Assembly (NCBI GenBank): GCA_964543385.1
Contig: CAZIYE010000002.1
Span: 96,715 to 128,714 of the forward strand
Direction of reading: 5' to 3'
Source: an uncultured Candidatus Saccharibacteria bacterium
Lineage (GTDB): Bacteria > Patescibacteriota > UBA1384 > XYA2-FULL-43-10 > 1-14-0-10-43-13
DNA length: 32,000 nt
In this document: positions 1,132 to 24,519 of the stretch, piece after piece
Layout: each line of letters starts with the position of its first letter
Numbering within the stretch: the stretch's first letter is position 1
Made by a program: the position numbers and the translations under genes
Notes under the pieces: generated by a model
The model's database searches: none
Told to the model about the DNA's origin: nothing
What the model saw: only the letters and a program-made list of their open reading frames with translations

Positions 1132-1325
1132 CTCCCTTCGAAATTTTATATTATGTTTTTACTATCAAAACTTACACTACCGGCTGCTCCTCAGCCTTTC
1201 AATGATAATCTTGCCAAAACAATAGAGGTTAAAGCATAAGGATTTTTGCTATATATCACAGTACCTTGCTTTGGGGATGAAAAATGTTAAAATATTAAAT
1301 ATAGGACTATAAAATAAGGATAAAA

Positions 1326-1946: not shown

Positions 1947-1998
1947 CTGAGGGAAATAAAGATCTCTGTACTTTCATCTTCTTCTTTATCTGGACCAG

Positions 1999-2007
1999 TG
2001 TTATAAT
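1999..2007 (+). promoter_or_regulatory. Extended -10 promoter (TGtTATAAT) placed 6 nt before the ATG; candidate leaderless transcript
   Basis: tgt+tataat at 1999..2007, then tacatc, then ATG at 2014. No Shine-Dalgarno sequence is present. Confidence 0.4.
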
Positions 2008-2013
2008 TACATC

Positions 2014-2817: not shown

Positions 2818-2830
2818 TTTGTTGGTAAAA

Positions 2831-3268
2831 TTAACTAGTTCCTATTTTGGACAAAAGCCAGTTTCTTGAATCTTCTAGAATTTGTCTAGTTTCCTTGTAG
2901 GTGATCTTTTCAAGTGCATTCTCATATGTTAGCCATTTGGCATCAGTAATTTCTTTCCCATCAATTTTGATCTCAAGGTTCTCGCAAAAACAAGGGAAAA
3001 ATTTGACAGTTTTATCTACCATTGTGCCGTGGTCATTCCAGCTATATTTTTCTATGAAATAAGTATCGGTAATTATCTTGAGAGGTCTTATCCCGGTCTC
3101 TTCGTAAAGTTCTCTTTCTGCTGTTTCAATTTCTGTTTCGCCAACCTCGGGATGTCCCTTTGGAAAGCTCCAAAATTGTCCATATTGTTCTATCAACAAA
3201 AAATAGATAGTACTTGGATCTTTATATTTTTGAAATATTGGCACAACGCCGTAAGAGAAATCCTTCAT
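2831..3268 (-). CDS. NUDIX hydrolase (Ap4A-hydrolase-like)
   Basis: Canonical Nudix box GHPEVGETEIETAERELYEETGI (Gx5Ex7REUxEExGU), preceded by W.FPKG. I prefer the ATG at 3268 (MKDFSYGVVPIF...), 1 nt after the kinase stop, over the track start at 3298, which overlaps the kinase. Confidence 0.85.
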   Translation of the reverse strand: MKDFSYGVVPIFQKYKDPSTIYFLLIEQYGQFWSFPKGHPEVGETEIETAERELYEETGIRPLKIITDTYFIEKYSWNDHGTMVDKTVKFFPCFCENLEIKIDGKEITDAKWLTYENALEKITYKETRQILEDSRNWLLSKIGTS

Positions 3269-3269
3269 A

Positions 3270-4919: not shown

Positions 4920-4946
4920 TTCCCTCCTATGATTAGCAATCAGATA

Positions 4947-6065
4947 TTATTTTAATTTACTCAAAAATTCTTTGGTATGATCAGCTCTTTTCTTTACGGA
5001 ATCGTCTGAATAATAGTTTGGTATTAAAGCGCCATCTATAGAAACATGTAATCTTCCGTCCATAATAGGATTGTTCATGGCTATATTTCTAATAATATAT
5101 GAGCCTACTGATCCTGCTAACATTGATGCTGTAGATAGCTGGGGCCATGTCTTTATTGTTTTGCCCACCTCGAGTAATGAGTCTTGCATACGGCTGACGG
5201 CGTTTTGGGGTTGAACAATTTTTAGAGATAGAGTTACGCGGTCCTGCGGCGATAGTTTGCCATGACTATTTTTGATAAGTTTGATGTCTTCTTCTGATAT
5301 TAAGCCGTGGAAAGGTTTCAAGCTAGATTTCAAGTCATATCTTTCTATGTCAACCATAACATTATCACCATTATCGGTAATCATTATTAAAGGTATTTTT
5401 TTATCTTTAGCTATTAGGCGCATATGAAGCTTCAGATGCAGGCTGTCTATCTCGTCAAAAACTATATCAGAATCTTTTACAAATTCATCAATATTGTCTT
5501 CACTTATACCATCAGAGAAAATTTGAACATTTATATACGGATTTATCTCATAAATTCTTCTTGCTAGAGCGATGGTTTTCTTTATATTAACGGATAGTAG
5601 CTCTGTTACAATTCGATTCATATTCGATGTGGAAATTGAATCACCATCAGCAATCTTAATGTTTTTGCATCCGCCTTGCATAACAGTAGCTAATACAATA
5701 TTACTGCCAACGCTTAGGCCGGCAACTGCAAGATTTGTATTCCGATATTTATCTTGTTCGGCGTGGTTTATTAAATATTTGTTGCGCGATGTTAGAAGAG
5801 TATAAAAGTCATTCTCTTCTAATGCCCTTATGACTGTTTTTCTCCATGGATAGACCACCAATGTCCCCAAGGTCTCTTGTTTAAACTCTGACAATGTCAA
5901 TTGTAGGTCAGCTTCTTTGCCTATACATGTCAGTTCAACCAATTCTTCAGCTTGGCACTCAAATATGTCGCTATAAACATATCCTTCGGAATTGAGTTTC
6001 AGCAAAATACTATCAAGCTCTTCTTTTGAGAAAAAATTAATTATATCTGGTTTAAATTGATCCAT
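4947..6065 (-). CDS. ThiF/E1-like adenylyltransferase (Rv1355c-like ThiF module) with a ~100-aa N-terminal extra domain
   Basis: 372 aa. The Rossmann nucleotide loop NLAVAGLSVGSNIVLATVMQGG is followed by IKIADGDSISTSNMNRI (the D..D....N.NR signature of the ThiF/MoeB/E1 family). The start overlaps the upstream gene by 25 nt, with a GGGAG SD inside it. Confidence 0.7.
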   Translation of the reverse strand: MDQFKPDIINFFSKEELDSILLKLNSEGYVYSDIFECQAEELVELTCIGKEADLQLTLSEFKQETLGTLVVYPWRKTVIRALEENDFYTLLTSRNKYLINHAEQDKYRNTNLAVAGLSVGSNIVLATVMQGGCKNIKIADGDSISTSNMNRIVTELLSVNIKKTIALARRIYEINPYINVQIFSDGISEDNIDEFVKDSDIVFDEIDSLHLKLHMRLIAKDKKIPLIMITDNGDNVMVDIERYDLKSSLKPFHGLISEEDIKLIKNSHGKLSPQDRVTLSLKIVQPQNAVSRMQDSLLEVGKTIKTWPQLSTASMLAGSVGSYIIRNIAMNNPIMDGRLHVSIDGALIPNYYSDDSVKKRADHTKEFLSKLK

Positions 6066-7591
6066 TGCTGTTTACTCCCTCTATCGTTACTAATTGATCC
6101 ATAAGGCATGAATACAACTCTAGGCTTAGCCTTTTCTTGGCCAATTTTTTCAACAAGAGTTTTGTATTCATAGTTGTTCTTTAGAAGATTCGAATAAATC
6201 TTTTCTCCAACATTTTTTTTTAATTCATCATTTGGTTCGATATTCTTATTCAATTCAACGGCTATTTCAATATATTGATTTCTTAAATCATCATACTTCG
6301 TGGTCATCGACATTCTAGTTGTCAATTTATCTATAATAGCTTGATCTTCAAGCCCTTTTCTAACTGTCTGCGGATAGATATTCAAGCCGTAGAGAGTAAT
6401 CGTTTGGTCTGATTTCCCGTAGAGGACAATGAAAGGTAATTTCCATATGGGAAGATTTAGTTTCTTGGCCTCTTCTAAAATATCTATACCTTCATTTTTA
6501 AATAAATTAATCATTTCATGGAAGCTATAGATAGTTCCATAATCGTGGAGGTTATAATCTAAAAGTGGCATTCCACCGACAGTAGAGCAAATTAATTCAT
6601 TGTCTACGCATTCAAAGTGTTTTAAATGTGGATGATATTGAACAAAAGTAGAAACCGTTCTGCCATTGAAGAGTTTTTCAAGCAGCTTATCATTTTTGGC
6701 ACATAGTCTTTTTATCATGATGCTAATAGGGGTCTCATGTCCAAGAATTGCTGCGTCAGCTGATCCATATGTATTCACGCTAGAATTGTAGTAGTCTTTA
6801 ATCTTTGCTTTCTTGTACAAATATTCGCGCCAATCTTCACTTATTGCCTCTGCGCCAAAGATGAATTTAAGGTTATACGAACCCCAGTCAAATCCCCTGG
6901 AAATACCTTCTTCAATTGTATCCTTTACAAAAGGAGGATATCCGCAGATCACTATTTGCTCATAGTTGTTTCCTATTTCGCTAATAATTCTTAAAATGCT
7001 GTCCATGGAAATACCTGGAGTTATGACGGAAAGATCATACCCTCTCTGTGCTATTCTTAGGCAGGAATTTAGCGTAAATACACCGGCAACATACATACCC
7101 ATTGAATAGGCATCGACTATTAATGTTCTTTTCTTGTCTATGTGAAAAAAATCCTTCAAGATCATCTCATAAATAATCGTTGTTTCTAGCTCCAAGTAAT
7201 TGCCTCTAGGCCAAAAATACGGTTTTCCGCTTGAACCAGAACTGACAGAAACCATCTTAATGGAGTCCATATAATTGCCGGGAAGTAGTTCTGAAATAGG
7301 ATATTCGTGCAGGTAATTTTTTTTGTCTATAAAACGGTTCGATTTGTTTGCTGAAAATTGCTTATAGGCGGGGACACTATTTTTTATTTCGGCCTCAAGC
7401 TCTGAGTATATTTCTTTCGAATATTTCTCGATCTCTTTAGGGTCAGTATTTTTTAGATAATTTAAAGAAAAATCAACGTCATAAATTTTAAGAGCCTCAA
7501 AAAAAGGATTGCTTGAATTGTTAATCTGTCCAATTGCTTGGTCTTTAAAATATGGTTTTAATGTTGTATAGTTATTAAAGATACTTTTCAT
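6041..7591 (-). CDS. Adenylate-forming enzyme of the ANL superfamily (PaaK / coenzyme F390 synthetase-like)
   Basis: VSSGSSGKPYFWPRG matches the (S/T)SG(S/T)TGKP AMP-binding loop of PaaK-type ligases. A later YGSADAA segment and a C-terminal lid-like region are present. I use the ATG at 7591 (MKSIFNNY...). The track's GTG at 7624 would overlap the divergent gene start. Confidence 0.65.
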   Translation of the reverse strand: MKSIFNNYTTLKPYFKDQAIGQINNSSNPFFEALKIYDVDFSLNYLKNTDPKEIEKYSKEIYSELEAEIKNSVPAYKQFSANKSNRFIDKKNYLHEYPISELLPGNYMDSIKMVSVSSGSSGKPYFWPRGNYLELETTIIYEMILKDFFHIDKKRTLIVDAYSMGMYVAGVFTLNSCLRIAQRGYDLSVITPGISMDSILRIISEIGNNYEQIVICGYPPFVKDTIEEGISRGFDWGSYNLKFIFGAEAISEDWREYLYKKAKIKDYYNSSVNTYGSADAAILGHETPISIMIKRLCAKNDKLLEKLFNGRTVSTFVQYHPHLKHFECVDNELICSTVGGMPLLDYNLHDYGTIYSFHEMINLFKNEGIDILEEAKKLNLPIWKLPFIVLYGKSDQTITLYGLNIYPQTVRKGLEDQAIIDKLTTRMSMTTKYDDLRNQYIEIAVELNKNIEPNDELKKNVGEKIYSNLLKNNYEYKTLVEKIGQEKAKPRVVFMPYGSISNDRGSKQQWINLNQI

Positions 7592-7615
7592 GATTCTAAT
7601 ATAGCATATTAAATT

Positions 7616-8740
7616 ATGAGCCACAATAATAAAGAGGCAGCGCTTGTCCTGGGGGGACTAGGCTTAATAGGTGGGTCACTAGCCCAAGAACTTACAAAGA
7701 ATTTTGACGTGTTTGTTGTGGACAGAAGAGAGCCTAAGGAAAAAAATGGAAGTGTGAAATATTATGTATCCGATGCGCTAAGTGTCTCAAGCCTTGAGAA
7801 GTTAATAATTGAACATGAGCCAAGACTAATCGTTAATTCAATAAATATAGCCACTATTTTTTCAGATAACCCTGAGGCAAACTATAAAAAGCTTGTTAAG
7901 TTTTACTATAGTTTGTATCAGATATTTAGTAAGATCTCACATCCGATACATTTCATTCAGATGGGGACAACTGGTTCTGGTGGACTAGGCTTTGATATTC
8001 CTTTTACTCATGGGGACAGAATAGAAGATCTCCCGATCATAAACAAGGCTGCTTTTGCCGGTGTTTCGACGGCAATGCTGACCCTTATGTCCAGGTCTTT
8101 TGGCCATAGAGTAAAAGTGTCGGAAATTAAACCAGGCTTGTCAATTTTTCGAAAAGATATTGTTAAAGAAAAATTTGATGGCAGTAACCTTATCCTTATA
8201 GATGGTGGTGAAAGTGGTTTTTATACATACAATGAACTAGCGCTCCTCACATGTTATATGGGTTTTACAACAGTAGACACGATCATTGATAAAGTTATGA
8301 AAATTATTGGTGGCGATAAAAGCTTCCATAATCACTGTGTTTATGACACGATAGGCAGTCTCAATGGTGCTATTATTACGCAAAATCACCTAGACCATTG
8401 GCGTTTGGTTAAATATCTTAATATTATGAAAAGACTGTCTGGCAAAGACTATATAATAGCTACGGGCAAACTTGGCCCTCCAAGCATCACAAGAGACTTA
8501 ATTCTTACATACCTAAAAAAGGAAAATCCTGATGTCGACGAGGAATCTTTTGCTAAGAAAATCAAGGGTGATGCAAATATAGTCAATACAATAAAATTCA
8601 TCAAGAAGAATGATAAAACTCTTTATGAATATCTATTAACTGAATTGAATTACGAAAACTATCTCAAAGCTATATATACTAAAGATGAGCCGTGGGAAAA
8701 CGTTAAAGCTATGTTGGCTAGACAGAAACTGATAGTATAG
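7616..8740 (+). CDS. NAD(P)-binding Rossmann-fold protein, atypical (no clear SDR YxxxK seen)
   Basis: 374 aa. N-terminal ALVLGGLGLIGGSLAQEL (GxxGxxG) is followed by VVDRR at the end of beta-2. It is divergent from the ANL/ThiF operon with only about 24 bp between the start codons. Confidence 0.6.
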   Translation: MSHNNKEAALVLGGLGLIGGSLAQELTKNFDVFVVDRREPKEKNGSVKYYVSDALSVSSLEKLIIEHEPRLIVNSINIATIFSDNPEANYKKLVKFYYSLYQIFSKISHPIHFIQMGTTGSGGLGFDIPFTHGDRIEDLPIINKAAFAGVSTAMLTLMSRSFGHRVKVSEIKPGLSIFRKDIVKEKFDGSNLILIDGGESGFYTYNELALLTCYMGFTTVDTIIDKVMKIIGGDKSFHNHCVYDTIGSLNGAIITQNHLDHWRLVKYLNIMKRLSGKDYIIATGKLGPPSITRDLILTYLKKENPDVDEESFAKKIKGDANIVNTIKFIKKNDKTLYEYLLTELNYENYLKAIYTKDEPWENVKAMLARQKLIV

Positions 8741-8760
8741 ACTAATCCACAGTTTTTCTT

Positions 8761-8789
8761 TTGACAATCTATGTGATCGCAGCTAAACT
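8761..8789 (+). promoter_or_regulatory. Sigma70-like promoter TTGACA-N17-TAAACT inside a 410-nt non-coding gap
   Basis: ttgaca at 8761..8766, a 17-nt spacer and taaact at 8784..8789. It begins 20 nt after the stop of the upstream gene. Confidence 0.45.
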
Positions 8790-9035
8790 ATATCAGTTCG
8801 CCATACTCTTATAGTTTATAGCGGACCTAGCTAATCATGGTCGTGCATTTATCTTGCTAGAAAGTGATGTGGCAACATCACAATAATCAATCAATCCTCA
8901 AGGACTGATTTTTATTTTGGGCAGATTCCGGCTGCTCTTGCCAATCCAACCGTCTGGTTGTGTATTCCGGCAGAACATCACTGACTATTTTATTGCACGT
9001 ATTAGTCAACTAGATGTTAGCACTTTTCTATCCCT

Positions 9036-9150
9036 CCTGATCCACCCTGTTTGTAAAAAATGTGCAGATGGATCAGGATAGCGGTTTGTTCACTGTATAA
9101 CCGCTGATAACAAATCAGCGTGTTGACAAAAAATCACACGCTGATTTTTG
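9036..9150 (+). promoter_or_regulatory. Attenuator-like leader: three hairpins with mutually exclusive 2:3 pairing, ending in a terminator
   Basis: Hairpin 0 is cctgatcca (9036..9044) / tggatcagg (9069..9077). Segment 1 agcggtt (9080..9086) pairs with 2 aaccgct (9099..9105). Segment 2' cgctgat (9102..9108) pairs with 3 atcagcg (9114..9120). Segment 3 atcagcgtgt (9114..9123) pairs with 4 acacgctgat (9136..9145), followed by tttttgttt. Confidence 0.55.
9112..9150 (+). terminator. Strong rho-independent terminator immediately upstream of the 9152/9176 ORF
   Basis: 10-12 bp stem (a)atcagcgtgt / acacgctgat(t), a 12-nt loop and the T-run 9145..9149 followed by gttt. Confidence 0.7.
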
Positions 9151-9151
9151 T

Positions 9152-9751
9152 TTGATGTTTATGTATAATTTACTTATGAAAATTTTATCCAAAGAAAAAT
9201 CTCGGGAGATATTAATCAAATTATTATCACTTTTCCAATGCGATCAGTTTGAGAAGATGGATAAATATCTCAATTCAAAGCCATTCAGATTCTTCAAATT
9301 CTATGCAAGCAATTCTTGCGAGCTCCCATTTTTATTTTGGGATGAAAAAGAAGCCAAGAAGATATTTGATTCCGCGATTAGTATTAGTGGTGCGGTAAAG
9401 GATAGTGATGGTGGTGTATACGGTATTGGTAATTATGATTATTTAGATAAATTAGCAAACTTTTTGAAAACACAGGGCTTTGTAAATATATACGGCGCTG
9501 GTAATTGGGATCCCTTCGGCAATGTTGGTCACAGTGCCATTGGCCTAAATGTTAATGAAATTAGGGGTATTAGCAGACATAACTACGATGACATCTATTT
9601 CTTTGATGAAAATTTTACCTGGATGCTCGCATTTAATCATCATAGAAACGGATTTTTTGCCGGATCAAAAGAAATGATAGAAGATTTTTCATATTCAGTG
9701 CCCGAATTTCGCAAATACCTCAGAGAAGAATGCTCCTGCTGCGGGCTTTGA
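9152..9751 (+). CDS. Hypothetical protein ending in a Cys-rich tail ...FRKYLREECSCCGL
   Basis: 199-aa ORF with no recognisable domain. A more likely start is the ATG at 9176 (MKILSKEK...), 6 nt after tataat (9164..9169). Its last ~25 codons recur twice downstream as remnants. Confidence 0.6.
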   Translation: MMFMYNLLMKILSKEKSREILIKLLSLFQCDQFEKMDKYLNSKPFRFFKFYASNSCELPFLFWDEKEAKKIFDSAISISGAVKDSDGGVYGIGNYDYLDKLANFLKTQGFVNIYGAGNWDPFGNVGHSAIGLNVNEIRGISRHNYDDIYFFDENFTWMLAFNHHRNGFFAGSKEMIEDFSYSVPEFRKYLREECSCCGL

Positions 9752-9771
9752 CTTATCCGCTAAGTTGACAT

Positions 9772-9800
9772 TTGACACCCTTTAATTGCTTCTGTAGAAT
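9772..9800 (+). promoter_or_regulatory. Near-consensus sigma70 promoter TTGACA-N17-TAGAAT (left repeat copy)
   Basis: ttgaca at 9772..9777, a 17-nt spacer and tagaat at 9795..9800. A second overlapping ttgaca lies at 9765..9770. Confidence 0.6.
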
Positions 9801-9885
9801 TTATGCATGGATACGTTATGGACAAAATTTAGACCCAAACGCAAGTTGCGGGCTAAGTGTGTCTTTGAAGAACTCCAAATAGATA

Positions 9886-9908
9886 GGACCCCTCTGGGGC
9901 CCTTTTTT
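9886..9908 (+). terminator. Hairpin plus T6 inside the leader of the HD gene (left repeat copy)
   Basis: ggacccc tct ggggccc gives 4 GC pairs, one A-C mismatch and 2 further GC pairs, followed by tttttt (9903..9908). It lies about 80-100 nt downstream of the promoter and 45 nt upstream of the ATG. Confidence 0.5.
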
Positions 9909-9952
9909 GTATCCTGTACACTCACAATCTAACGAAAGGAGGACTCCGGAGA

Positions 9953-10153
9953 ATGGGAGCAATGTTGGTACACGTTTCTGCATTAGAATATCTCTCAGTG
10001 CTCGCTCTTCGGAGATTCTCCGAAGAAGACCTGCGAAGGATTCAAAAAGCAGAGGATTTCGCTACTGAGAAGTTGCAAGGCATATTGCGGCGTGATGGTG
10101 CCGCGGTCAATATTGCGAGATTTATCTATACTGCCTTTCAAAATTCGCTGTAA
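9953..10153 (+). pseudogene. Truncated 5' copy of the SpoT-like HD hydrolase gene (49 authentic codons + 17 unrelated codons)
   Basis: The first 146 nt are identical to 13741..13886 (MGAMLVHVSALEYLSVLALRRFSEEDLRRIQKAEDFATEKLQGILRRDG). The sequence diverges at 10099 and stops at 10153, before the HD motif. Confidence 0.8.
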
Positions 10154-10173
10154 ATGCCCTGACCCCCTATAGC

Positions 10174-10515
10174 CTAAGTGCTGTGGGGGGTCTTGATATT
10201 AGTTCTTTTAAAGCTGCCGCGGACAAGTTTAAAAGCCAAGCGTCCGTCCTTGTGCTGCATCGGTGTACCGATTAATTCTCCGCAATCACAAGTTAGATTT
10301 TTCAGGGTTGATTCGTCATGTTCATTGGAACTATTAAAACTATCGGATATTATCCGGTTTATATAACAACGTTTGAGCCAACCAGGACCATCTTTCTGGT
10401 ATAAAAATATCTTTTTTCCACATTTAGCGCACCTGACGCGGGTAATCTTAGCAGTGCCGCCTCTGGCAGCCAGATATTTATCTCTTTTGATTTTGAATTG
10501 GTGTGACTGTTCCAT
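10174..10515 (-). CDS. Hypothetical zinc-ribbon protein (CxxC ... CxC)
   Basis: 113 aa, basic. RVRCAKCGKK and LTCDCGEL form a putative 4-Cys knuckle pair. A GC-rich hairpin gaccccc (10161..10167) / gggggtc (10186..10192) spans its 3' end. Confidence 0.6.
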   Translation of the reverse strand: MEQSHQFKIKRDKYLAARGGTAKITRVRCAKCGKKIFLYQKDGPGWLKRCYINRIISDSFNSSNEHDESTLKNLTCDCGELIGTPMQHKDGRLAFKLVRGSFKRTNIKTPHST

Positions 10516-10569
10516 TATAAAAAATTATTCGAATCATTATTATATCAATAAAGATTTTTTTTCTCAATT

Positions 10570-10659
10570 ATGAGAGAGCAAGATGATTCAAAATTCTCAT
10601 ATTCAGTGCCTGAATATCGCAAATACCTCAAAGAAGAATGCTCCTGTTGTGGGCTTTAA
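10570..10659 (+). pseudogene. Diverged remnant of the ...CSCCGL gene tail (reads as a 29-codon mini-ORF)
   Basis: atg at 10570 gives MREQDDSKFSYSVPEYRKYLKEECSCCGL then taa. It is about 85% identical by eye at the nucleotide level to 9671..9751. Downstream, 10690..10715 also retains the tttgaca...aattgctt...tagaat promoter-like module. Confidence 0.55.
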
Positions 10660-10837
10660 ATTTTTTAGTTCTGCATTACAGTAAAGCCAATTTGACAAAA
10701 CAAATTGCTTAGAATATCATCATATGAAACAAGCTTTATAGAAAGAAAAATATCTCCCAGACAAGTAAAATGTTGTTAGGGGATCATCTTTTTATAGGAC
10801 AAAATATAGAATTTAAAATCCAAGCAAGAATCAAAAA

Positions 10838-12238
10838 ATGAATGCCAATAATCAAAGAGTTGCTATAGCTGGACTTGGACCTCATGCCAAACGTATCTAT
10901 ATTAGGGTTCTCGCAAATTATGAAATTCAACCAAAATTAGTAATAGATATACAGTCTTCTGAGGAAAGTGTTAGGAAATTTCTAAGAGAGCATAAAATCA
11001 AATGTGATCTATATTTTGTACCGGATAAAAACAAAGATCTTAGGCGTCTTTCCGGAGAAGACAAGAAAAATATTGCACGTCTCCTCAAAAAAAATAAAAT
11101 CAATAAAGCAATAATATCTACAGAACCAAAATCTCATGTCGCATATGCGGAATTTTTTTTGAAACAGAAGTTGCCAGTTCTAATGGATAAGCCAGTTACG
11201 GCCATAAAAAATGCATGTTTCGATGATCGCCTTGCCCAGCAAATCTATAAAGAATATAAGCATCTGAGAGATATGTCTATTCAAAATGATGTTCCTCTAG
11301 TAATCCAATCTCAGAGGAGATATCACGGTGGATATATCTTTATCAGGGAATTACTTAAAGATACCATATTAAAATATGGTATTCCGGTTACGCATATGGA
11401 TATTTATCATTGTGATGGTCAATGGAATATGCCAATAGAATACATTACTAGGGATAATCATCCTTTTAATTATGGGTATGGTAAGGTTTTACATAGTGGC
11501 TATCATTTTGTTGATTTCATGAGTTGGATAGTAGCTCTTAACAATTTATTACCAGACAAAAAGCCGGATTGTTTCGATGCTATTCACAAGACAGTTAAAC
11601 CTCAAGATCAACTCTTTCAACTTAATGAAAGCTATGAAAAACTTTTTGAAAAAGAGTTACCAGGATTGCCAGAGAAAGATTTTTCCAAAATGGGTGAACT
11701 AGATTCTTACTCATTTATGCAATTCAAAAGAGAGGGCAAAGTAGTCACTTCTGTAAATCTGAATATGTTGCACAGTGGATTTTCTCGACGGGCTAGTTCT
11801 GAATTGGCCAAGGATGTTTATAAAGGTAATGGCAGGGTAAGGCATGAGAGAATAAATATCCAGATTGGTCCGATACTCAATATACAAGTTCATAGTTATC
11901 AATCTTATGAAATCAAAGATAGCAGTTATTCAAAGAAAGAGATTGAACCTGGCGGTTTAGACCACTTCGATATTTATATATTCAGGAATTCTGGTATTAT
12001 CGGTGGCAAGTCGTTCGAAAAAATTCAGGTCTCCAACCGGAGCCGTATCAATAGGAGAACGCACATGGGCCATAATGAGGAAGCCAGGGAAAGGTGCACA
12101 AAAGATTGGTTACAAGGAAATGAGAGTGAGAATGATGTGTTAAAACACAAGCTCACTAATTTAGTTATGTCTACCCTATATCGCTGTTCTGCCAAGGAAA
12201 ATTTAGGCAGATTCCCATATATGGAAGTTAAACTGTAG
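10838..12238 (+). CDS. Gfo/Idh/MocA-like oxidoreductase-fold protein
   Basis: 466 aa. N-terminal RVAIAGLGPHAKRIY (Rossmann GxGxxA-type), then AIISTEPKSHVAYAEFFLKQKLPVLMDKPV (the ..TP...H......AL..GKHVL.EKP pattern). HSGYHFVDFMSWI lies in the C-terminal domain. No SD is visible. Confidence 0.6.
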   Translation: MNANNQRVAIAGLGPHAKRIYIRVLANYEIQPKLVIDIQSSEESVRKFLREHKIKCDLYFVPDKNKDLRRLSGEDKKNIARLLKKNKINKAIISTEPKSHVAYAEFFLKQKLPVLMDKPVTAIKNACFDDRLAQQIYKEYKHLRDMSIQNDVPLVIQSQRRYHGGYIFIRELLKDTILKYGIPVTHMDIYHCDGQWNMPIEYITRDNHPFNYGYGKVLHSGYHFVDFMSWIVALNNLLPDKKPDCFDAIHKTVKPQDQLFQLNESYEKLFEKELPGLPEKDFSKMGELDSYSFMQFKREGKVVTSVNLNMLHSGFSRRASSELAKDVYKGNGRVRHERINIQIGPILNIQVHSYQSYEIKDSSYSKKEIEPGGLDHFDIYIFRNSGIIGGKSFEKIQVSNRSRINRRTHMGHNEEARERCTKDWLQGNESENDVLKHKLTNLVMSTLYRCSAKENLGRFPYMEVKL

Positions 12239-12276
12239 TTTGACAATCAAATCCAAGTACGAGGGGGAGCTGAAAG

Positions 12277-12969
12277 ATGCCGGTTACTGTGGCGTTTGAC
12301 GGTTTGAATCGATGCGGTAAAGGCACCCAGGCAGCATTGCTGCAGTCTCGCCTTCGCGAGATGGATGTTTTTTCCGTGATCATCAGAGGCGACGGTTCGA
12401 GGGATGGCTTGGGATTGACACCAGGTGATCCAGAAGACCTCTGGTGGCAAGGCTTCAAAAGCTGTCTAAAGGGCAGCGAAGGGACAACGCGCTGGTTCGA
12501 TAAATGGAATGAAGCAGCGTGTCGCTTAGCGCATGAATTAATTTGCTGGCAGGGAATAACATTCCCTCAAATGCTGAAAGATTCAGGGCGTAAAAGCGGA
12601 GTCTTACTTATCGATCGGAGCATTATTTCCAGAATTATGGTTATGCGGCAAGCCGGAGAGTATAACGGTTTAAACAGCCTGTATACTGTCGGAGGCGAGC
12701 CACAAGACATTGACTGGGAAGAGGTGCTACCCACAGTGCTGTTCAATTTCCATGTGCCCCAAGAGGTACTTCTGGCACGGTTGGATCATGATGATCCAAA
12801 GTATCAGTTCCGAAAGGGCATTATCGAACAGCATTTCCAACTCCATGTCTCTGTTTCTAGGGAGCTGCCAGAAGAAATTTTAGGCAGAACAATCCCTTTG
12901 AACGGCGACAATGAGCTTGAGGTTATCCACGAAGAAATATCTGCGGTAGTGGAACCTCTATTGCATTAG
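12277..12969 (+). CDS. P-loop kinase, thymidylate-kinase-like (divergent)
   Basis: 230 aa. VAFDGLNRCGKGTQAALL is a Walker A motif in the dTMP-kinase context (.EG.DG.GKsTq). LLIDRSIISR resembles the DRY/DR motif. It is visibly GC-richer (first 60 nt are 55% GC) than both neighbours, and its SD GGGGGAG is unlike the local style. Confidence 0.6.
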   Translation: MPVTVAFDGLNRCGKGTQAALLQSRLREMDVFSVIIRGDGSRDGLGLTPGDPEDLWWQGFKSCLKGSEGTTRWFDKWNEAACRLAHELICWQGITFPQMLKDSGRKSGVLLIDRSIISRIMVMRQAGEYNGLNSLYTVGGEPQDIDWEEVLPTVLFNFHVPQEVLLARLDHDDPKYQFRKGIIEQHFQLHVSVSRELPEEILGRTIPLNGDNELEVIHEEISAVVEPLLH

Positions 12970-12979
12970 TGCGGGCAGA

Positions 12980-13002
12980 GTGTGGGGCAGGACGCCCCAC
13001 AC
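12980..13002 (+). other. GC-rich 9-bp hairpin between the kinase and Nudix genes
   Basis: gtgtggggc (12980..12988) / gccccacac (12994..13002) with loop aggac. No clean T-run follows, so it is not a classical terminator. Confidence 0.5.
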
Positions 13003-13032
13003 CATAATTTGAAAAAGTAATAAAAGGAGTAT

Positions 13033-13461
13033 ATGAGGCACAGTTTTGATTCAGTGAATGTCAGTACAATAATTTTTAATAGAAAAGGACAGGTTCTTTT
13101 GGGAAAAAGAAGTATGGACGAGGATGTATATCCCGGACTTTGGTGTGTGCCTGGAGGCAAGATAGATGTGGAAGCCTGTGAAGGTGAAATTATCGAGAAC
13201 AATTTAAAAAGAGAGGTGAAGGAAGAGATAGGGATAGAGATAGAACCTCTCTTTTATCTTGCTAGCAATTGTCTTATAAAAGGAGACGAGGCAAAATTAT
13301 ATCTGATGTTTGTATCAGAGCATGTTGCCGGTGAGCCATTTGCACTTGACGGTACCGAAGAAGTTAAATGGTTTGAAATCGATGAACTAACACCAGAAAT
13401 GCTAACGCCTAAAACCTATGACAATATTCAAAAAGCGAGTGACAAAAGAATATCTCTCTAA
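13033..13461 (+). CDS. NUDIX hydrolase
   Basis: 142 aa. GGKIDVEACEGEIIENNLKREVKEEIGI contains the REVKEEIGI core of the Nudix box, with a longer than usual loop. The SD AAGGAG lies 5 nt upstream. Confidence 0.8.
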   Translation: MRHSFDSVNVSTIIFNRKGQVLLGKRSMDEDVYPGLWCVPGGKIDVEACEGEIIENNLKREVKEEIGIEIEPLFYLASNCLIKGDEAKLYLMFVSEHVAGEPFALDGTEEVKWFEIDELTPEMLTPKTYDNIQKASDKRISL

Positions 13462-13539
13462 AAATATCTAGACAATTTCGAAATCTTAATTTATTTCCGC
13501 AAATATCTCAGAGAAAAATGCTCCTGCTGCGGGCTTTGA
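13462..13539 (+). pseudogene. Remnant of the ...CSCCGL gene tail, in frame with the Nudix ORF after its single TAA
   Basis: Codons after the Nudix stop read KYLDNFEILIYFRKYLREKCSCCGL then tga, with no start codon of their own. The last 7 codons lie inside the perfect repeat. Confidence 0.6.
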
Positions 13540-13559
13540 CTTATCCGCTAAGTTGACAT

Positions 13560-13588
13560 TTGACACCCTTTAATTGCTTCTGTAGAAT
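13560..13588 (+). promoter_or_regulatory. Near-consensus sigma70 promoter TTGACA-N17-TAGAAT (right repeat copy), driving the intact HD gene
   Basis: Same sequence as 9772..9800, shifted by 3788. Confidence 0.6.
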
Positions 13589-13673
13589 TTATGCATGGAT
13601 ACGTTATGGACAAAATTTAGACCCAAACGCAAGTTGCGGGCTAAGTGTGTCTTTGAAGAACTCCAAATAGATA

Positions 13674-13696
13674 GGACCCCTCTGGGGCCCTTTTTT
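13674..13696 (+). terminator. Hairpin plus T6 in the HD gene leader (right repeat copy)
   Basis: Same sequence as 9886..9908. It could also serve as the terminator of the Nudix gene. Confidence 0.5.
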
Positions 13697-13740
13697 GTAT
13701 CCTGTACACTCACAATCTAACGAAAGGAGGACTCCGGAGA

Positions 13741-14376
13741 ATGGGAGCAATGTTGGTACACGTTTCTGCATTAGAATATCTCTCAGTGCTCGCTCTTCGG
13801 AGATTCTCCGAAGAAGACCTGCGAAGGATTCAAAAAGCAGAGGATTTCGCTACTGAGAAGTTGCAAGGCATATTGCGGCGTGATGGCACACCAGCCATTG
13901 AGCACTCAAGAGCACTTGCACTCAAAGCATGCGAGCTAAAACTGTCAGCAAACGCTATAGCGATTGCCTGGTTGCACGATGTGTTGGAGGACAACCTCAA
14001 TGTCACATCGTGGGACCTGTACTGTTTGTTTGGAGTCGTCCATGGGGCGATCATCACCAACGGCGTAATAGCCTTGACACAATGCGACTGGATGTCTGAC
14101 GAAGTGTACTTCAATAGGATCGAAGTTGCATCCTCAGTCAACTGGGAGATTGTAGTCGTCAAATTAATTGATCGCTGGCATTTCCATTCGGACTTTTACA
14201 ACGGTCCGGAGAAGAAAGAGCTAGCCAAGATTGACCAGACACAGAAGATCTTCCAGCAGACTATCAGAAACTGTGAAGTATTAGTTCCGGAAGATTTCCG
14301 GTCGACATACAATCAGTTGCTGGATGAAGTACTGGAGCTTGCAGAAATCCGGCAAGCTGAACTAATGGCCGCATAG
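13741..14376 (+). CDS. Small alarmone hydrolase-like HD-domain protein (RelA/SpoT hydrolase family)
   Basis: 211 aa. RRDGTPAIEHSRALA...AIAIAWLHDVLEDN...LFG...GVIALTQ and later VVKLIDRWHFH parallel the SpoT/Mesh1 hydrolase pattern (R.sGePy..Hp..VA....AALLHDv.EDT...FG...V.GVtKL...KLADRLHN). GC-richer than the surrounding housekeeping genes. Confidence 0.7.
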   Translation: MGAMLVHVSALEYLSVLALRRFSEEDLRRIQKAEDFATEKLQGILRRDGTPAIEHSRALALKACELKLSANAIAIAWLHDVLEDNLNVTSWDLYCLFGVVHGAIITNGVIALTQCDWMSDEVYFNRIEVASSVNWEIVVVKLIDRWHFHSDFYNGPEKKELAKIDQTQKIFQQTIRNCEVLVPEDFRSTYNQLLDEVLELAEIRQAELMAA

Positions 14377-14451
14377 GCTCTGTCCACGATGGACCGAGCC
14401 TATTGCATTTTTATATTAGAAAAATTAATCAAGTTATGCTATAAAAATAAT

Positions 14452-16623
14452 ATGAAAGAAATTGCAAAAGCCTACGACCATCAACAATTTGAAGAACCCA
14501 TCTATAAGCACTGGGAAGACTCTGGTTATTTTAAGCCTGAAATAAATATGGGCAAAAAGCCAGAATATGACAGAGAAATTGACGGTAAGCCTTTTGTTAT
14601 CTCTATGCCACCGCCGAATGTAACAGGTAAGTTACATGTTGGCCACTCGTTGTTTATTACATTGCAAGATATAATGATCCGATATCATCGCTTGAAAGGC
14701 GAACCAACTCTTTGGCTGCCAGGAACAGATCATGCAGGTATTGCCACTCAAACTGTAGTCGATAAAATGCTTAAGAAACAAGGAATCGACAAGCGAGAGC
14801 TTGGCCGTGAAAAATTCATTGAAGAAGTGTGGAAATGGAAAGAAGAGTACGGAGGTACTATTACTAGACAACTCCGTCGTATGGGCGCTTCTTGTGACTG
14901 GTCAAGAGAGAGATTTACGCTTGATGAAGGCCTTAGTTTCGCTGTTCGTAAAGCCTTTGTTGATCTCTATAAAAAAGAGCTGATATATCAGGGGCTTAGA
15001 GTTGTGAACTGGTGTCCTCGTTGTCGTACAGCTATTGCTGATGATGAAGTCGAATATCAAGAACAGAAATCAAAATTATATTGGATCAAATATGGTCCCT
15101 TTGTATTGGCGACTACTCGTCCTGAAACTAAATTAGGTGATACTGCAGTTGCGGTCAATCCAAAAGATAAAAGATACCTTGATATGGTTGGCAAAAAGTA
15201 TATGATTCCGGGAGTTTTAGGTGAATTTGAGGTCATAGTGGTTGCTGACAATGCGGTTGATCCCGCGTTTGGTAGTGGTGCGGTAAAAGTCACTCCCGCA
15301 CATAGCTTCGCGGACTACGAAATTGCTCAACGTCATAACCTTTCAATGAAGCAGATAATCGATGAAAATGGTCGTATGATGGCTAATACTGGTAAATATG
15401 CCGGAATGAAGACCTCTGAGGCCAGAGAAGCCATAGTGGCGGACATGGACAAGCTGGGATTAATTGATCATGTAGACGAATATGATAACAGTCTTCCGAC
15501 TTGCTATCGTTGTGGAGGAACTATCGAGCCGATTCCATCGAAGCAATGGTTTGTTAAGATGAAAGATCTTGCCAATAGGGCAAAGAAAGTTGTTGAAGAT
15601 GGAAAAATGGATATAATTCCTGATCGTTTCAAAAAGTTGTATATCCAATGGATGGAAAATATTCGCGACTGGTGCGTGTCTCGTCAAATTTGGTGGGGTC
15701 ATCAGATCCCAGTTTGGTATAGGGGTGATGAGATCTATTGCGGCATGGAAGCTCCCGATGGTAAGGATTGGAAACAGGATCAAGATGTGCTCGATACTTG
15801 GTTTTCCTCTGCCTTGTGGCCTTTTTCAACCCTTGGTTGGCCAGGGGAGACAAAGGACTACAACTATTTTTATTCCACAACAGTAATGGAAACTGGTTAT
15901 GATATTTTGCCTTTCTGGGTAGCTAGAATGGCTACTTTTGGTCTCGAATTTACCGGCAAGGTACCTTTTGAAACTGTTTATTTTCACGGCCTAGTTCGCG
16001 ATGAAAAGAATAGGAAAATGAGCAAATCTCTTGGCAATGTTTTAGACCCTCTCGATATTATTCCAAAATATGGCACGGATGCTCTTAGGATGGCGCTTGT
16101 AGTCGGTTCAGCTCCTGGTCAAGATTTAGCAGTAGGGGAGTCAAAGATTAAGGGCTATCGTAATTTCTCTAATAAAATATGGAACGCTTCCCGGTTTGTT
16201 CTGCTGCAAGTTTCAAATGGGGATTTAAGAACCGGTGAAATTGGTGCAGCAAGGTTAGATAGTTTAGACATAAACAAAGCAACTCTAACTAATCAAGACA
16301 AAGCTATACTAAAGGATTTAGAAAATGTTAAAAAGTCCGTCACGGAGAAATTAGACAAGTTCAGATTCTCTCAAGCAGGAGAGGAATTGTATGAATTTTT
16401 CTGGCATACATTTTGTGACATCTATATAGAAAAAGCAAAAGAACAAATTGCAGATGAGAAGTTCAAGGATAATACTAAAAAAATATTGATAAAAATCCTC
16501 TCTGAATCCCTAATCCTTCTTCATCCTTTTGTGCCTTTCGTCACTGAGGCTGTATGGCAGGAGCTTCGGAAGGTATATCCAGATCTCTCCAAATCCATCA
16601 TGATTTCAAGATGGCCTCTATAA
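14452..16623 (+). CDS. valS: Valyl-tRNA synthetase
   Basis: PPPNVTGKLHVGHSL (HIGH motif), GTDHAGIATQ, the WCPRCRTAI editing-domain zinc motif and KMSKSLGNV (KMSKS). I use the ATG at 14452 (MKEIAKAYDHQQFE...), not the track's upstream extension from 14389. Confidence 0.95.
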   Translation: MKEIAKAYDHQQFEEPIYKHWEDSGYFKPEINMGKKPEYDREIDGKPFVISMPPPNVTGKLHVGHSLFITLQDIMIRYHRLKGEPTLWLPGTDHAGIATQTVVDKMLKKQGIDKRELGREKFIEEVWKWKEEYGGTITRQLRRMGASCDWSRERFTLDEGLSFAVRKAFVDLYKKELIYQGLRVVNWCPRCRTAIADDEVEYQEQKSKLYWIKYGPFVLATTRPETKLGDTAVAVNPKDKRYLDMVGKKYMIPGVLGEFEVIVVADNAVDPAFGSGAVKVTPAHSFADYEIAQRHNLSMKQIIDENGRMMANTGKYAGMKTSEAREAIVADMDKLGLIDHVDEYDNSLPTCYRCGGTIEPIPSKQWFVKMKDLANRAKKVVEDGKMDIIPDRFKKLYIQWMENIRDWCVSRQIWWGHQIPVWYRGDEIYCGMEAPDGKDWKQDQDVLDTWFSSALWPFSTLGWPGETKDYNYFYSTTVMETGYDILPFWVARMATFGLEFTGKVPFETVYFHGLVRDEKNRKMSKSLGNVLDPLDIIPKYGTDALRMALVVGSAPGQDLAVGESKIKGYRNFSNKIWNASRFVLLQVSNGDLRTGEIGAARLDSLDINKATLTNQDKAILKDLENVKKSVTEKLDKFRFSQAGEELYEFFWHTFCDIYIEKAKEQIADEKFKDNTKKILIKILSESLILLHPFVPFVTEAVWQELRKVYPDLSKSIMISRWPL

Positions 16624-16909
16624 ACAGTCTTTAGTAGTAGTCAGCTGTTTGTCGATTAAATAATTTCTATTTGGTCTTTTCTATATTGTTTTAGTTGTCA
16701 TATTCTAGGATTATTTTGTTAAATATCATTAATCAACATTATTGCCACAAATGGTTGGATTTTTAGCAAAAACAAGTAGTAAACAGCATAAAAAAGAACA
16801 GATAGCTCAAAAAAGAAGGCAAAGATTTCGAGCTAAGCTTTGGCAGCACAGTAATAAATATGTTGACATGTGGTTTAAAAAAATTAAAAGTTTTTTTAAC
16901 AGGAGATAG

Positions 16910-17413
16910 ATGGCTGGAAGAAGAAAAAAGCAAATAGCAATCGGTACAATCATGGCCCTTATAATTATTCTTGTAGTTGTATTCTTTTATGGAATTAAGG
17001 CAGATAATAGGCAGGATAATCCAGAAATAACAAGTATACGGACTGATAGCTTTGATGAGAAAGTACATAATGTAGAGCCCGACAAAGCGTATTTAAGAAG
17101 TATAGATACAGAAGGGTTTGGTTTAACAAAAAGGATCTATGCAAACGGCAAGTTTATGCATACTGTGAGTGCAAGTTTGCCGCTAGTAGAGGATCCGGAG
17201 TTTTACCAGGGATGGCTTGTTAAGCCTGGCAATGATGTTGATAAAGAAGAATTTATTGCGACAGGAAAACTTATTTATACTGAGAGTGAATTTTTTCTCT
17301 TTTATGAATCGGATCAGGACTTGAAAGATTTCTCAAAAATTATAGTTTCGAAACAGATTCAAAATGATGCTGTTCCTAATAGCTATGTTCTAGTCGGATC
17401 ATTTGCAAACTGA
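16910..17413 (+). CDS. Hypothetical membrane-anchored extracytoplasmic protein
   Basis: 167 aa. A basic N-terminus and one TM helix (IAIGTIMALIIILVVVFFYGI) are followed by a soluble domain. The SD AGGAG lies 6 nt upstream. Confidence 0.6.
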   Translation: MAGRRKKQIAIGTIMALIIILVVVFFYGIKADNRQDNPEITSIRTDSFDEKVHNVEPDKAYLRSIDTEGFGLTKRIYANGKFMHTVSASLPLVEDPEFYQGWLVKPGNDVDKEEFIATGKLIYTESEFFLFYESDQDLKDFSKIIVSKQIQNDAVPNSYVLVGSFAN

Positions 17414-17484
17414 TTTTGACAAAATAGCAGATATCGCCTAATATAAATGTATTAAATTATTTAGGCAAAAACCAAGGAGAGCAT

Positions 17485-17949
17485 ATGAGTAACAATTTAA
17501 AAACTTTTCTATTCATACTTTTAGCAGTTTTCTTAGTTTCTGGAGGGCTTATCTTTATAAGCGCAAAGTCAAAGAAAAGTGCTGATAGCAATACAACTAC
17601 CCAAAGCGAGGACGGCGGAGTAGCTGGTGCGTCGACTCAGGACGAAAAAAGTGAAGGGAAAAAAGATAGCGCTTATATTGAAAAGTTGGCAAAGTTTATG
17701 GCTGAAAAGGGTATGGTCATGTTCGGTGCATATTGGTGCCCGCACTGTGTCGACCAGAAAAAGCTTTTCGGTGATGCCTTCAAATATGTTGACTATGTTG
17801 AGTGCGATGAGAAGGGTCCAAATGCAAATCCAGACGAATGTGTGGCAAATGGAATAGAAGGATACCCAACGTGGGTTTATCAAGGTCAGCAATACGGTGG
17901 CTATAAATCTTTCTCCGAGCTTGCAAAAATAGTAGGATTTAACGAATAG
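17485..17949 (+). CDS. Membrane-anchored thioredoxin-fold protein (CPHC active site; VKOR-partner-type Trx domain)
   Basis: 154 aa. An N-terminal TM helix and a Ser/Thr/Glu-rich linker precede FGAYWCPHCVDQKKLFG, which resembles the Trx-like domain fused to bacterial VKOR homologues. The SD AAGGAG is present. Confidence 0.65.
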   Translation: MSNNLKTFLFILLAVFLVSGGLIFISAKSKKSADSNTTTQSEDGGVAGASTQDEKSEGKKDSAYIEKLAKFMAEKGMVMFGAYWCPHCVDQKKLFGDAFKYVDYVECDEKGPNANPDECVANGIEGYPTWVYQGQQYGGYKSFSELAKIVGFNE

Positions 17950-17970
17950 TATTATAAAGGTCTCTTAAGG

Positions 17971-17998
17971 AATGTCCCAAGAAATTGGGACATTTTTT
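17971..17998 (+). terminator. Rho-independent terminator
   Basis: 9-bp stem aatgtccca (17971..17979) / tgggacatt (17986..17994), a 6-nt loop and a T-run to 17998. Confidence 0.8.
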
Positions 17999-18091
17999 AA
18001 ATAATAGTTCTTGTTATCTGTGCGATGTTGTTATTCGGATTGCAAAAGCAGCGCAATTAATGGTAATTGCTTGGGGATAACCCGTGTTATT

Positions 18092-18117
18092 AATTTAAAA
18101 TTTAAAATTTAAAATTT
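18092..18117. repeat. AT-only 7-nt tandem repeat (aatttaa x ~3.7)
   Basis: Read directly: ttt recurs at 18094, 18101, 18108 and 18115 with period 7. Confidence 0.8.
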
Positions 18118-18293
18118 CAGCAAGTGCGTTTGACAAGATAAAATTAACAGCTTCAGCATTTACTATTTTATATGATTACGGATCGTTAATTATAGATTAT
18201 TTAATTTCGAGCACATATTTGTTGACAGTTGAGCTTAGACACGAATAAAATATTAATTAAGTAATCGATTATAAGGCTATCAATATTTTCTGT

Positions 18294-18340
18294 CTCCTTC
18301 TGTGAGCTGAAAGTAGAGGCGCCAATATATACGGAAGGAG
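18294..18340 (+). promoter_or_regulatory. SD-sequestering helix in the leader of the zinc-ribbon mini-gene
   Basis: ctccttctgt (18294..18303) is complementary to acggaaggag (18331..18340) with one G-U pair. The latter contains the GAAGGAGG Shine-Dalgarno of the 18351 ORF. Confidence 0.45.
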
Positions 18341-18350
18341 GTGAATTAGA

Positions 18351-18494
18351 ATGGAAGCATATTGCGTAAAATGCAAGGCTAAGGTTGAGATCAAAAATCC
18401 TCAATCAATTACTATGAAAAATGGTAAGCCAGCAACATCAGGTGAGTGTCCAGTTTGTGGCACAAAAGTTTTCAGAATTGGCGCTGCTAAATAG
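18351..18494 (+). CDS. 47-aa zinc-ribbon mini-protein (CxxC...CxxC)
   Basis: Below the track cut-off and read by hand: MEAYCVKCKAKVEIKNPQSITMKNGKPATSGECPVCGTKVFRIGAAK. A strong SD GAAGGAGGTG lies 8 nt upstream and a terminator follows. Confidence 0.75.
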   Translation: MEAYCVKCKAKVEIKNPQSITMKNGKPATSGECPVCGTKVFRIGAAK

Positions 18495-18530
18495 TTTTCG
18501 AATAAATTTTTGTTTTTGATAAACGCAAGA

Positions 18531-18557
18531 GTGTCCCCGTACATCGGGGGCATTTTT
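18531..18557 (+). terminator. Rho-independent terminator
   Basis: Stem gtccccg (18533..18539) / cgggggc (18545..18551) with one G-U pair, loop tacat and T5 at 18553..18557. Confidence 0.7.
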
Positions 18558-18603
18558 GTGGAGAATTGAAAAAAGTCGGCAGAAGTATTATATTTTATAT
18601 ATT

Positions 18604-22386: not shown

Positions 22387-24519
<2,133 letters not shown>

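Follow-up and report, generated by a model that had tools for sequence, protein, structure and literature searches.

Here, we describe a partial duplication of an HD-type hydrolase gene, together with its promoter and leader, in a 32,000-nucleotide stretch of DNA from an uncultured Candidatus Saccharibacteria bacterium (contig CAZIYE010000002.1, positions 96,715 to 128,714; hereafter called the window). The gene is present once in full, next to the gene encoding the valyl-tRNA synthetase ValS, and once as a head only, in two identical direct copies of 370 bp that enclose 3.4 kb of other DNA. Of the two copies, the right one is ancestral, and the left one arose secondarily. We give about an even chance to the reading that this locus results from a lineage-specific segmental duplication made by host recombination, in a rearrangement-prone region of a Saccharibacteria-like chromosome of the candidate phyla radiation (CPR), and that it is not a mobile element.

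The two copies of the repeat (R1 on the left and R2 on the right; Table 1) were compared base by base and are identical at 370 of 370 positions at a constant offset of 3,788, in agreement with a sequence-only reading of this DNA that had pointed to a perfect direct repeat. On the left side, an imperfect similarity reaches approximately 9705-9707, with mismatches at 9706, 9709, 9718 and 9728, in line with the roughly 25 bp of imperfect match that this reading had given. On the right side, the match falls to random level from 10099, with no residual similarity between the sequence from 10099 onward and that from 13887 onward. Each copy contains the elements in the order that had been read: the last codons of an open reading frame (ORF) ending in ...CSCCGL, with stop codons at 9749-9751 and 13537-13539, a promoter-like site, a leader of approximately 100 nt with GGACCCCTCTGGGGCCC (a GC-rich hairpin) and T6 at its end, an AAGGAGG Shine-Dalgarno sequence and the start of the HD gene. 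The shared part of the HD gene corresponds to 48 full codons plus 2 nt, and codon 49 is GGT versus GGC, so that the claim of exactly 49 shared codons holds for the 49 identical residues and not for the nucleotides. As had also been read, the left copy then continues into 17 unrelated codons and the right copy into the intact 211-aa gene; the left version had been called decapitated, but it is a head without a body. Hereafter, L designates the left flank, R the repeat, X the 3.4 kb between the two copies (10099-13516) and H the HD side.

Table 1. Features of the duplicated locus; positions are those of the window.
Feature	Position	Strand	Remarks
199-aa gene	9152..9751	+	ORF, ends in ...RKYLREECSCCGL; gene caller starts at 9176 (191 aa)
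Tail copy A	9707..9751	+	Within the last 45-80 bp of the 199-aa gene, in frame with it
Left repeat copy R1	9729..10098	+	Identical to 13517-13886; secondary copy
Promoter-like site, TTGACA-N17-TAGAAT	9772..9800 (left), 13560..13588 (right)	+	11/12 consensus matches (promoter scan)
Leader	9807..9909 (left), 13595..13697 (right)	+	Hairpin 9820-9864, terminator stem 9885-9903 followed by T6 (folds)
Truncated HD gene H'	9953..10153	+	66-aa ORF: 49 N-terminal hydrolase residues and 17 unrelated residues; no HD motif
Right-hand breakpoint of R1	10098..10099		Homology stops abruptly, indicating an illegitimate join
Segment Z	10099-10580		About 0.5 kb, carries the 113-aa zinc-ribbon gene
113-aa zinc-ribbon protein	10174..10515	-	CxxC...CxC, YQKDGPGWLKRCY motif; converges on the left repeat copy
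Tail copy B	10581..10662	+	Decayed last ~27 codons of the 199-aa gene, ending in ..FSYSVPEYRKYLKEECSCCGL and a stop; aligns to the gene end in L025
Ancestral downstream flank of the 199-aa gene	10663..10769	+	Orthologous to the flank past the 189-aa homologue in L025
Promoter-like site P2, TTGACA-N17-TATCAT	10692..10720	+	Promoter scan
GFO/IDH/MocA-like oxidoreductase, 466 aa	10838..12238	+	Pfam PF01408, E 6e-6; host-like composition
P-loop kinase-like protein, 230 aa	12277..12969	+	Weak thymidylate-kinase matches; compositional outlier
Nudix hydrolase, 142 aa	13033..13461	+	Pfam PF00293, E 2e-18; MutT-like NCBIfam matches below cutoff
Tail remnant T'	13495..13539	+	45 bp, FRKYLREKCSCCGL and a stop, no start codon; abuts the ancestral left edge of the promoter-leader-HD unit
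Right repeat copy R2	13517..13886	+	Ancestral copy, continuous with the intact HD gene
Intact HD gene	13741..14376	+	211-aa stand-alone Rel/SpoT-type hydrolase-domain protein (small alarmone hydrolase-like)
Valyl-tRNA synthetase (ValS)	14452..16623	+	Pfam tRNA-synt_1, Anticodon_1; marks the conserved right-hand synteny

The ancestral copy was identified by comparison with one close relative, represented by two contigs (L001 and L025) from sample SRR32414321, whose HD protein shares 83% amino-acid identity with that of the window. In L001, a guanylate kinase gene on the minus strand is followed by a single promoter-leader-HD-ValS unit and then by the same downstream genes as in the window. Homology between L001 and the window starts at 13539, directly after the stop codon of the tail remnant T', and extends across HD and ValS into the genes beyond, interrupted once, at 16897-17412, by an additional gene of the window; the gene order on the ValS side is also the same in L001 and in L021, one of the independent contigs described below. 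Since the unit is single and collinear in L001, the right copy is ancestral and the left copy is derived. The sequence-only reading had envisaged relatives with the same architecture and diverged repeats, which would make it old; the relative compared here does not have this architecture.

On L025, a separate contig, a homologue of the 199-aa gene (189 aa, 77% identity) is followed by a promoter region and then by TruD. Positions 10581-10769 of the window align with the end of this gene and with the roughly 110 bp that follow it, at 73% identity over 190 bp including the tail. Thus, the left part of X is the old 3' end of the 199-aa gene with its flank. X had been described as a mosaic insert of 3.4 kb: the contrasts in GC content behind this description are broadly right, but a simple foreign insert is not supported, 10581-10769 being local DNA. 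Neither does the insert appear to be the young element at this locus; it is the left repeat copy that looks young.

The end of the 199-aa gene is found three times in the locus: at the gene itself (tail A), as a decayed copy inside X (tail B) and as T', just before the ancestral promoter. Positions 10594-10662 of tail B are 88% identical to 9686-9754, with 8 differences in 69 bp (12%). T' differs from tail A at 3 of its first 22 bp (14%; positions 9709, 9718 and 9728) and then at 0 of 370, a step in divergence that is significant even with the conservative counts of 2/24 versus 0/370 (Fisher's test, p = 0.004). At the three T'-specific sites, tail B agrees with A and not with T'. Upstream of T', no older homology was detected above the level of shuffled sequences (local alignment score of 8 against a shuffle mean of 9.5). 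From these divergences (12% for B and 14% for the outer part of T'), we conclude that B and T' are remnants that date from about the same time and precede the last exchange. The change from 3/22 to 0/370 points to this later exchange, which has its left boundary in the homology shared by A and T' and its right boundary, at 10098/10099, at a place without any homology. The absence of divergence over 370 bp dates this last exchange and not the architecture.

What one would expect from homology-anchored copying is found here: one breakpoint lies within older homology and shows a step in divergence, and the copy that served as donor is the ancestral one. We infer the following scenario for the mechanism of repair and for the succession of the older events. 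Copying would have started in a short older homology, with the tail A of the 199-aa gene facing the 45-bp T' that was already located before the HD promoter; synthesis would then have copied 370 bp, with the promoter, the leader and 49 codons of HD, before an illegitimate join at 10098/10099 closed the event. Such a copy could come from the repair of a break or fork, by one-ended strand invasion or by template switching, and a very recent conversion of an older duplicate would be an equal alternative. A one-ended, homology-primed copy is the reading with the fewest steps; conversion of an old duplicate is less in keeping with a tract that extends up to the final homologous base. In this scenario, X would be mostly resident, composed of the decayed end of the 199-aa gene with the ancestral promoter downstream of it, of the GFO-like/kinase/Nudix set and of a DPANN-type zinc-ribbon piece of about 0.5 kb added earlier.

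The locus resembles known segmental duplications that arise by ectopic recombination or template switching in that identical direct copies are found, one of them truncated, with one boundary in homology and the other without, in that no element-encoded machinery is involved and in that the structure is inherently unstable. It differs from them in that the copy lies 3.4 kb upstream of its template and not in tandem, in that a gene tail is present three times, implying repeated events at one site, and in that the repair pathway is not established in Saccharibacteria.

It is rather unlikely, in our view, that the old architecture (tail A, R1, H', Z, tail B ... T', R2) was formed only once and that R1 and R2 were then kept identical by repeated gene conversion. 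Such a concerted evolution would account for the similar older divergence of tail B (12%) and of the outer 22 bp of T' (14%), and the start of the identity within the homologous tail is what a conversion tract would give. On the right side, however, the tract extends to the last homologous base (10098), which two-sided conversion would not predict, and the relative without this architecture limits its age to, at most, the split at approximately 80% nucleotide identity.

We then turn to the assembly itself, for which Logan contigs, built independently from single runs (SRR12261224 and sister runs), were compared with the window. Three of them match it at 100%: L022 corresponds to 778-9758, L020 to 10069-13546 and L021 to 13857-26623. 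Each of the ends of these contigs at the repeat sits exactly 30 bases inside it, which we take to be the overhang of k-1 = 30 bases that a Logan graph with k=31 leaves at a true repeat. L020, with its 3,478 bp (3,418 + 2x30), recurs identically in five samples, and the flanking contigs recur as well (L022 in four samples and L021 in three). All four junctions between unique and repeated DNA being present in Logan contigs from three to five runs, these junctions exist in the reads, and 9729 is the exact first position of the shared part. The duplication is thus genuine in sequence and a chimeric join is contradicted: the sequence-only reading had left the choice between a very recent event and an assembly join, and it is the recent event, at least for the last exchange, that is retained.

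Still, the k=31 graph (L to R, R to X, X to R and R to H) contains a cycle in which R is a node with two entries and two exits, and it fits equally well with L-R-X-R-H, with L-R-H plus a 3,788-bp circle, with a mixture of these or with more than one copy of X. The repeat being longer than k, a deletion allele gives no new k-mer, so that a k-mer graph is blind to the path. The assembler may therefore have threaded once what is a loop, with a chromosome that carries a single R (199-aa gene, R, HD) and with R-X as a separate circle or at another copy number. In favour of this, Logan (k=31) gives X as one contig of 3,478 bp that runs into R on either side, and no k-mer separates L-R-X-R-H from L-R-H plus a circle. 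SPAdes traverses simple loops, and the contigs of the metagenome-assembled genomes (MAGs) from the same study have SPAdes-style NODE names. As to the pipeline, the Bin Chicken preprint names Aviary and leaves the assembler itself unnamed. We find such a loop improbable, because a 3.8-kb circle without a replication gene would need to persist with identical breakpoints in five samples, because it would hold a truncated HD head and two dead gene tails, as an integrated duplication leaves and unlike a replicon, and because a circle born from excision implies that an integrated form exists too.

The content of X also bears on its origin. The GC content is 48.6% for the kinase gene, 47.5% for the HD gene and 45.4% for the repeat, compared to 35.5% for the GFO-like gene, 38.2% for the Nudix gene, 34-38% for the flanks and 38% for the whole window. 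The only tetranucleotide outliers at the locus are the kinase gene (z 2.3; GC content at third codon positions of 0.50) and the HD gene (z 1.7); the GFO-like gene, the Nudix gene, segment Z and the flank have a composition like the rest of the window. The HD gene is GC-rich compared to its surroundings in all four relatives examined, so that this richness is a family trait and no sign of a recent transfer. The kinase-like gene at 12277-12969 has the most atypical composition of the locus, similar to that of the HD gene, and no detectable homologue next to HD in the relative. We rejected the possibility that it corresponds to the genes found upstream of HD there, which encode the guanylate kinase and a dihydroorotate-dehydrogenase-like protein.

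No integrase, transposase, recombinase, resolvase or replication domain was found in the scanned ORFs of the 32-kb window, and these domain scans agree with the earlier statement that integrases, transposases and recombinases are missing from it. Scans of the genes of X with Pfam, PHROG, NCBIfam and PADLOC gave no phage, plasmid or defence signal beyond generic Nudix matches. Comparing 9600-14000 with phages returned nothing, and comparing it with plasmids returned a single, irrelevant match of 110 bp in the Nudix gene. No tRNA or tmRNA gene usable as an attachment site was found either. A composite transposon or insertion sequence was rejected, with no transposase, repeats that are direct and 370 bp long and no inverted repeats at the boundaries: the whole window has none of at least 30 nt, and 8000-16000 has only pairs of 20-21 nt (81-95% identity), none of them at the edges of the repeats or of the insert. 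Among the marks of an integrative element, the direct repeats are thus present, an element-encoded function was not found and X is not foreign to the locus.

One can also imagine that a circle of 3,788 bp, made of the tail remnant, promoter, leader, HD' and X, recombined with the chromosomal promoter-leader-HD region by Campbell-type integration, or was excised and re-integrated, in which case X would have been inserted recently and perhaps in a reversible or amplifiable manner. The topology fits exactly, as in the single crossover of a suicide plasmid: direct repeats flank X, and in the left copy, the flank is intact on the left side and truncated on the right side, with the reverse for the right copy. 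The assembly graph is a cycle from R to X to R, X holds an archaeal-type gene and a compositionally odd kinase gene, and the relative has no X beside HD on L001. Unlike in such integrations, however, neither a replicon nor an integrase is at hand: X and the 32-kb window contain no integrase, replication or transfer gene, and no similarity to phages or plasmids was seen. In addition, X includes the ancestral end and flank of the adjacent 199-aa gene, so that it is local DNA, and a foreign circle with 14% divergence in the outer tail should not show 0% over the next 370 bp. A Campbell-type origin, to which no specific finding points, is quite unlikely in our view. As for the possibility that two unrelated contigs or strains were wrongly joined into a chimera where they share a sequence, contig-internal perfect repeats are a classic warning sign in a MAG, but this is extremely unlikely here, since independent assemblies of the same runs reproduce the flanks and X at 100% identity, since both ends of X lead into R only and since the synteny on the HisKA and ValS sides is that of one lineage, as seen with L025 and L001 from one sample.

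Several points weigh against a segmental duplication as well. It does not account for how the three copies of the tail and segment Z came about, and normal two-sided gene conversion is not expected to stop exactly at the edge of a homology. To our knowledge, repair by end joining or template switching is undocumented in these organisms. A Campbell-type event gives the same topology, and the linear order L-R-X-R-H was not observed as such but is how the assembler resolved a cycle. Finally, the state of this lineage before the duplication was reconstructed from two contigs of one close relative and was not seen directly.

The leader that was duplicated with the HD gene is itself conserved. It was compared at five HD loci: the window, L001 (1399-1512), L023 (about 455-562), L002 (about 9868-9968) and L024 (about 275-375). 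All five share the same layout, with a promoter made of -35 and -10 boxes, an ATG, a long imperfect hairpin, an intrinsic terminator, a Shine-Dalgarno sequence and the start codon, and the promoter-like site of the window is kept in the four others. The leaders of the window and of L001 are 89% identical, compared to an identity of 61% at third codon positions of HD, 80% for the whole HD gene and 79% for ValS. In a structure-guided alignment of the leader hairpin, 4 of 16 pairs are changed on both sides with pairing kept. The leader ATG is located 6-7 nt past the -10 box in the five loci (6 nt in the window) and opens an ORF of 21-41 codons, whose stop codon abuts the terminator stem in three of the five; conservation does not extend to the peptide, whose frame is shifted by indels from one close relative to another.

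Rfam 15 gave no match in the window at gathering thresholds, and a permissive scan of 13480-13800 returned only chance-level hits (E > 4). With a covariance model built from three distant leaders, the two hairpins of the window rank first in 9000-14500, with 6.8 bits and an E-value of 2.8, a score by which homology at the RNA level between the two groups of leaders is not demonstrated. Exact 23-mer and 28-mer patterns of the leader found nothing among Joint Genome Institute (JGI) metagenome contigs. On the basis of these few sequences, we consider the leader as a candidate attenuator or riboswitch. With leader-peptide or hairpin attenuators and with terminator-type riboswitches, it has in common the promoter, the structured hairpin, the terminator and the Shine-Dalgarno sequence, as well as the short ORF that runs to the terminator in three of five loci; it differs from them by the lack of an Rfam match, by a peptide that is not conserved and by the five sequences known. 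A broader proposal would be that the leader, with its ATG at the start of the predicted transcript, is an undescribed cis-regulator, either a riboswitch of a new type or an attenuator coupled to translation, which controls a stand-alone (p)ppGpp-hydrolase-like gene, and that the repeats turn the 3.8-kb GFO/kinase/Nudix unit into a cassette that RecA can delete or amplify, which we hold as a tentative idea, on the unlikely side.

Concerning the HD protein, the profile of its family matches Rel/SpoT hydrolase domains in the PDB (1vj7, E 2e-13) over residues ~13-172. The match of the 211-aa protein to Pfam HD_4 reaches 23.2 bits, under the cutoff of 27.2, and NCBIfam spoT_relA is also sub-threshold. 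The HD..ED motif (WLHDVLED) is invariant in the family, including H79 and D80, which are both located past residue 49, so that the fragment of 49 residues lacks this motif and should be inactive. Judged from profile and motif, the intact protein is a Rel/SpoT-type hydrolase-domain protein with its HD motif and a candidate (p)ppGpp hydrolase. It is like the small alarmone hydrolases (stand-alone RelA/SpoT HD-domain proteins, for example those of the Mesh1 type) by this hydrolase-domain match and HD..ED motif, and unlike them by its very small family, which counts 6 clusters in 5.8 billion proteins, and by a score below the Pfam HD_4 gathering threshold. Only five relatives were found in 5.8 billion protein clusters. 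The nearest one from a named genome (57% identity) belongs to a Candidatus Saccharibacteria MAG from study SRP272421 and was also recovered from one of the Logan runs that match the window, which would thus come from a Saccharibacteria-like MAG of this study. In exact-protein look-ups, neither the HD protein nor the 199-aa protein (with the ORF-finder start) was on record, the former because Logan splits its gene at the repeat.

The 113-aa protein encoded in segment Z has 127 homologues with 45-71% identity, which form a tightly conserved family of about 108 aa with the invariant core CxxC...YQKDGPG.L.R.Y..RI...C.C. Every homologue with a taxon name comes from a DPANN-type archaeon (Pacearchaeota, Nanoarchaeota or 'archaeon'). 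No Pfam, PHROG, NCBIfam or PADLOC family and no significant PDB match was found for this protein; there are weak hints of a Yippee or beta-tent-like fold and one distant locus in IMG/VR. Its closest homologue (66%) is on a contig with archaeal-type ribosomal protein genes, between serine-recombinase-domain genes, in this one context. From this distribution, the gene looks like an inter-domain acquisition into a CPR bacterium that is older than the last exchange. On the contig of the closest homologue (L026, 430-2507), a small serine recombinase (Resolvase + Recombinase) and two Recombinase-only proteins surround it, with overlapping stops and starts. The sequence-only reading had missed this conserved minus-strand gene, as well as tail copy B, the third occurrence of the end of the 199-aa gene (88% identity).

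The 199-aa protein matches DUF6756 of Pfam at sub-threshold level only and has three homologues among 5.8 billion proteins: the same gene called from 9176 and two others with 77% and 55% identity. The tails of this family are Cys-rich (EECSCCGL, EECSCC and DDDCPNCSL; P0008, P0009), and the upstream neighbours of the gene encode a ThiF-like protein, a 527-aa protein of unknown function and an epimerase-like protein. Remnant B forms an ORF of 29 codons at 10571-10659 (MREQDDSKFSYSVPEYRKYLKEECSCCGL) with no obvious Shine-Dalgarno sequence. T' shares its reading frame with the stop codon of the Nudix gene (TAA, 13459-13461); by hand reading, read-through would add ...KYLDNFEILIYFRKYLREKCSCCGL, which is probably a coincidence, with one chance in three for a shared frame.

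Further observations concern the surroundings of these genes. Conservation covers the promoter-like site P2 and about 50 nt at the start of its transcript (10663-10769 versus 10570-10683 in L025), and the gene behind P2 is GFO-like in the window and TruD in the relative; the rearrangement breakpoints at P2, as at the HD unit, sit at the edges of promoter-plus-leader modules. From the conserved HisKA_7TM histidine kinase gene to the 199-aa gene, the content is wholly different between the window (3270-9751) and L025 (1182-10570): this variable region contains the ThiF-like, 527-aa and 374-aa genes in the former and a decarboxylase-type gene, an acetyltransferase gene and several unknown genes in the latter. 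Elsewhere in the window, the housekeeping genes (ValS, GyrB/GyrA and IF-2) are bacterial and the promoters are of the sigma-70 type. A cluster of direct repeats of 53-105 nt (60-95% identical) at 444-1122 overlaps a region of small ORFs, with a 73-aa minus-strand product that shows faint KGG/LEA_5 matches in the precomputed annotation. Finally, an ORF of at least 836 codons on the plus strand (29492-31999) runs off the end of the window; it matches no Pfam family, and its tetranucleotide composition deviates more than that of any other part of the window (z up to 4.2).

As a duplication, this locus would be an ordinary product of recombination and thus a known kind of event. As a caution on method, it illustrates that a perfect repeat in a MAG can be real at the level of the reads while order and copy number stay unresolved. 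The left copy would yield nothing more than a dead 66-aa fragment and a second promoter and leader; this second leader would drive only the dead HD fragment and converge on the 113-aa gene. Being identical, the repeats would make the 3.8-kb unit prone to deletion or amplification of the RecA type. The leader is more constrained than the synonymous sites of the HD gene and may offer a handle on how an alarmone-hydrolase-like enzyme is controlled. Altogether, the locus would be a case of a reduced CPR genome that reshuffles promoter-plus-leader modules, with breakpoints exactly at the edges of these modules and with a DPANN-type gene taken up there.

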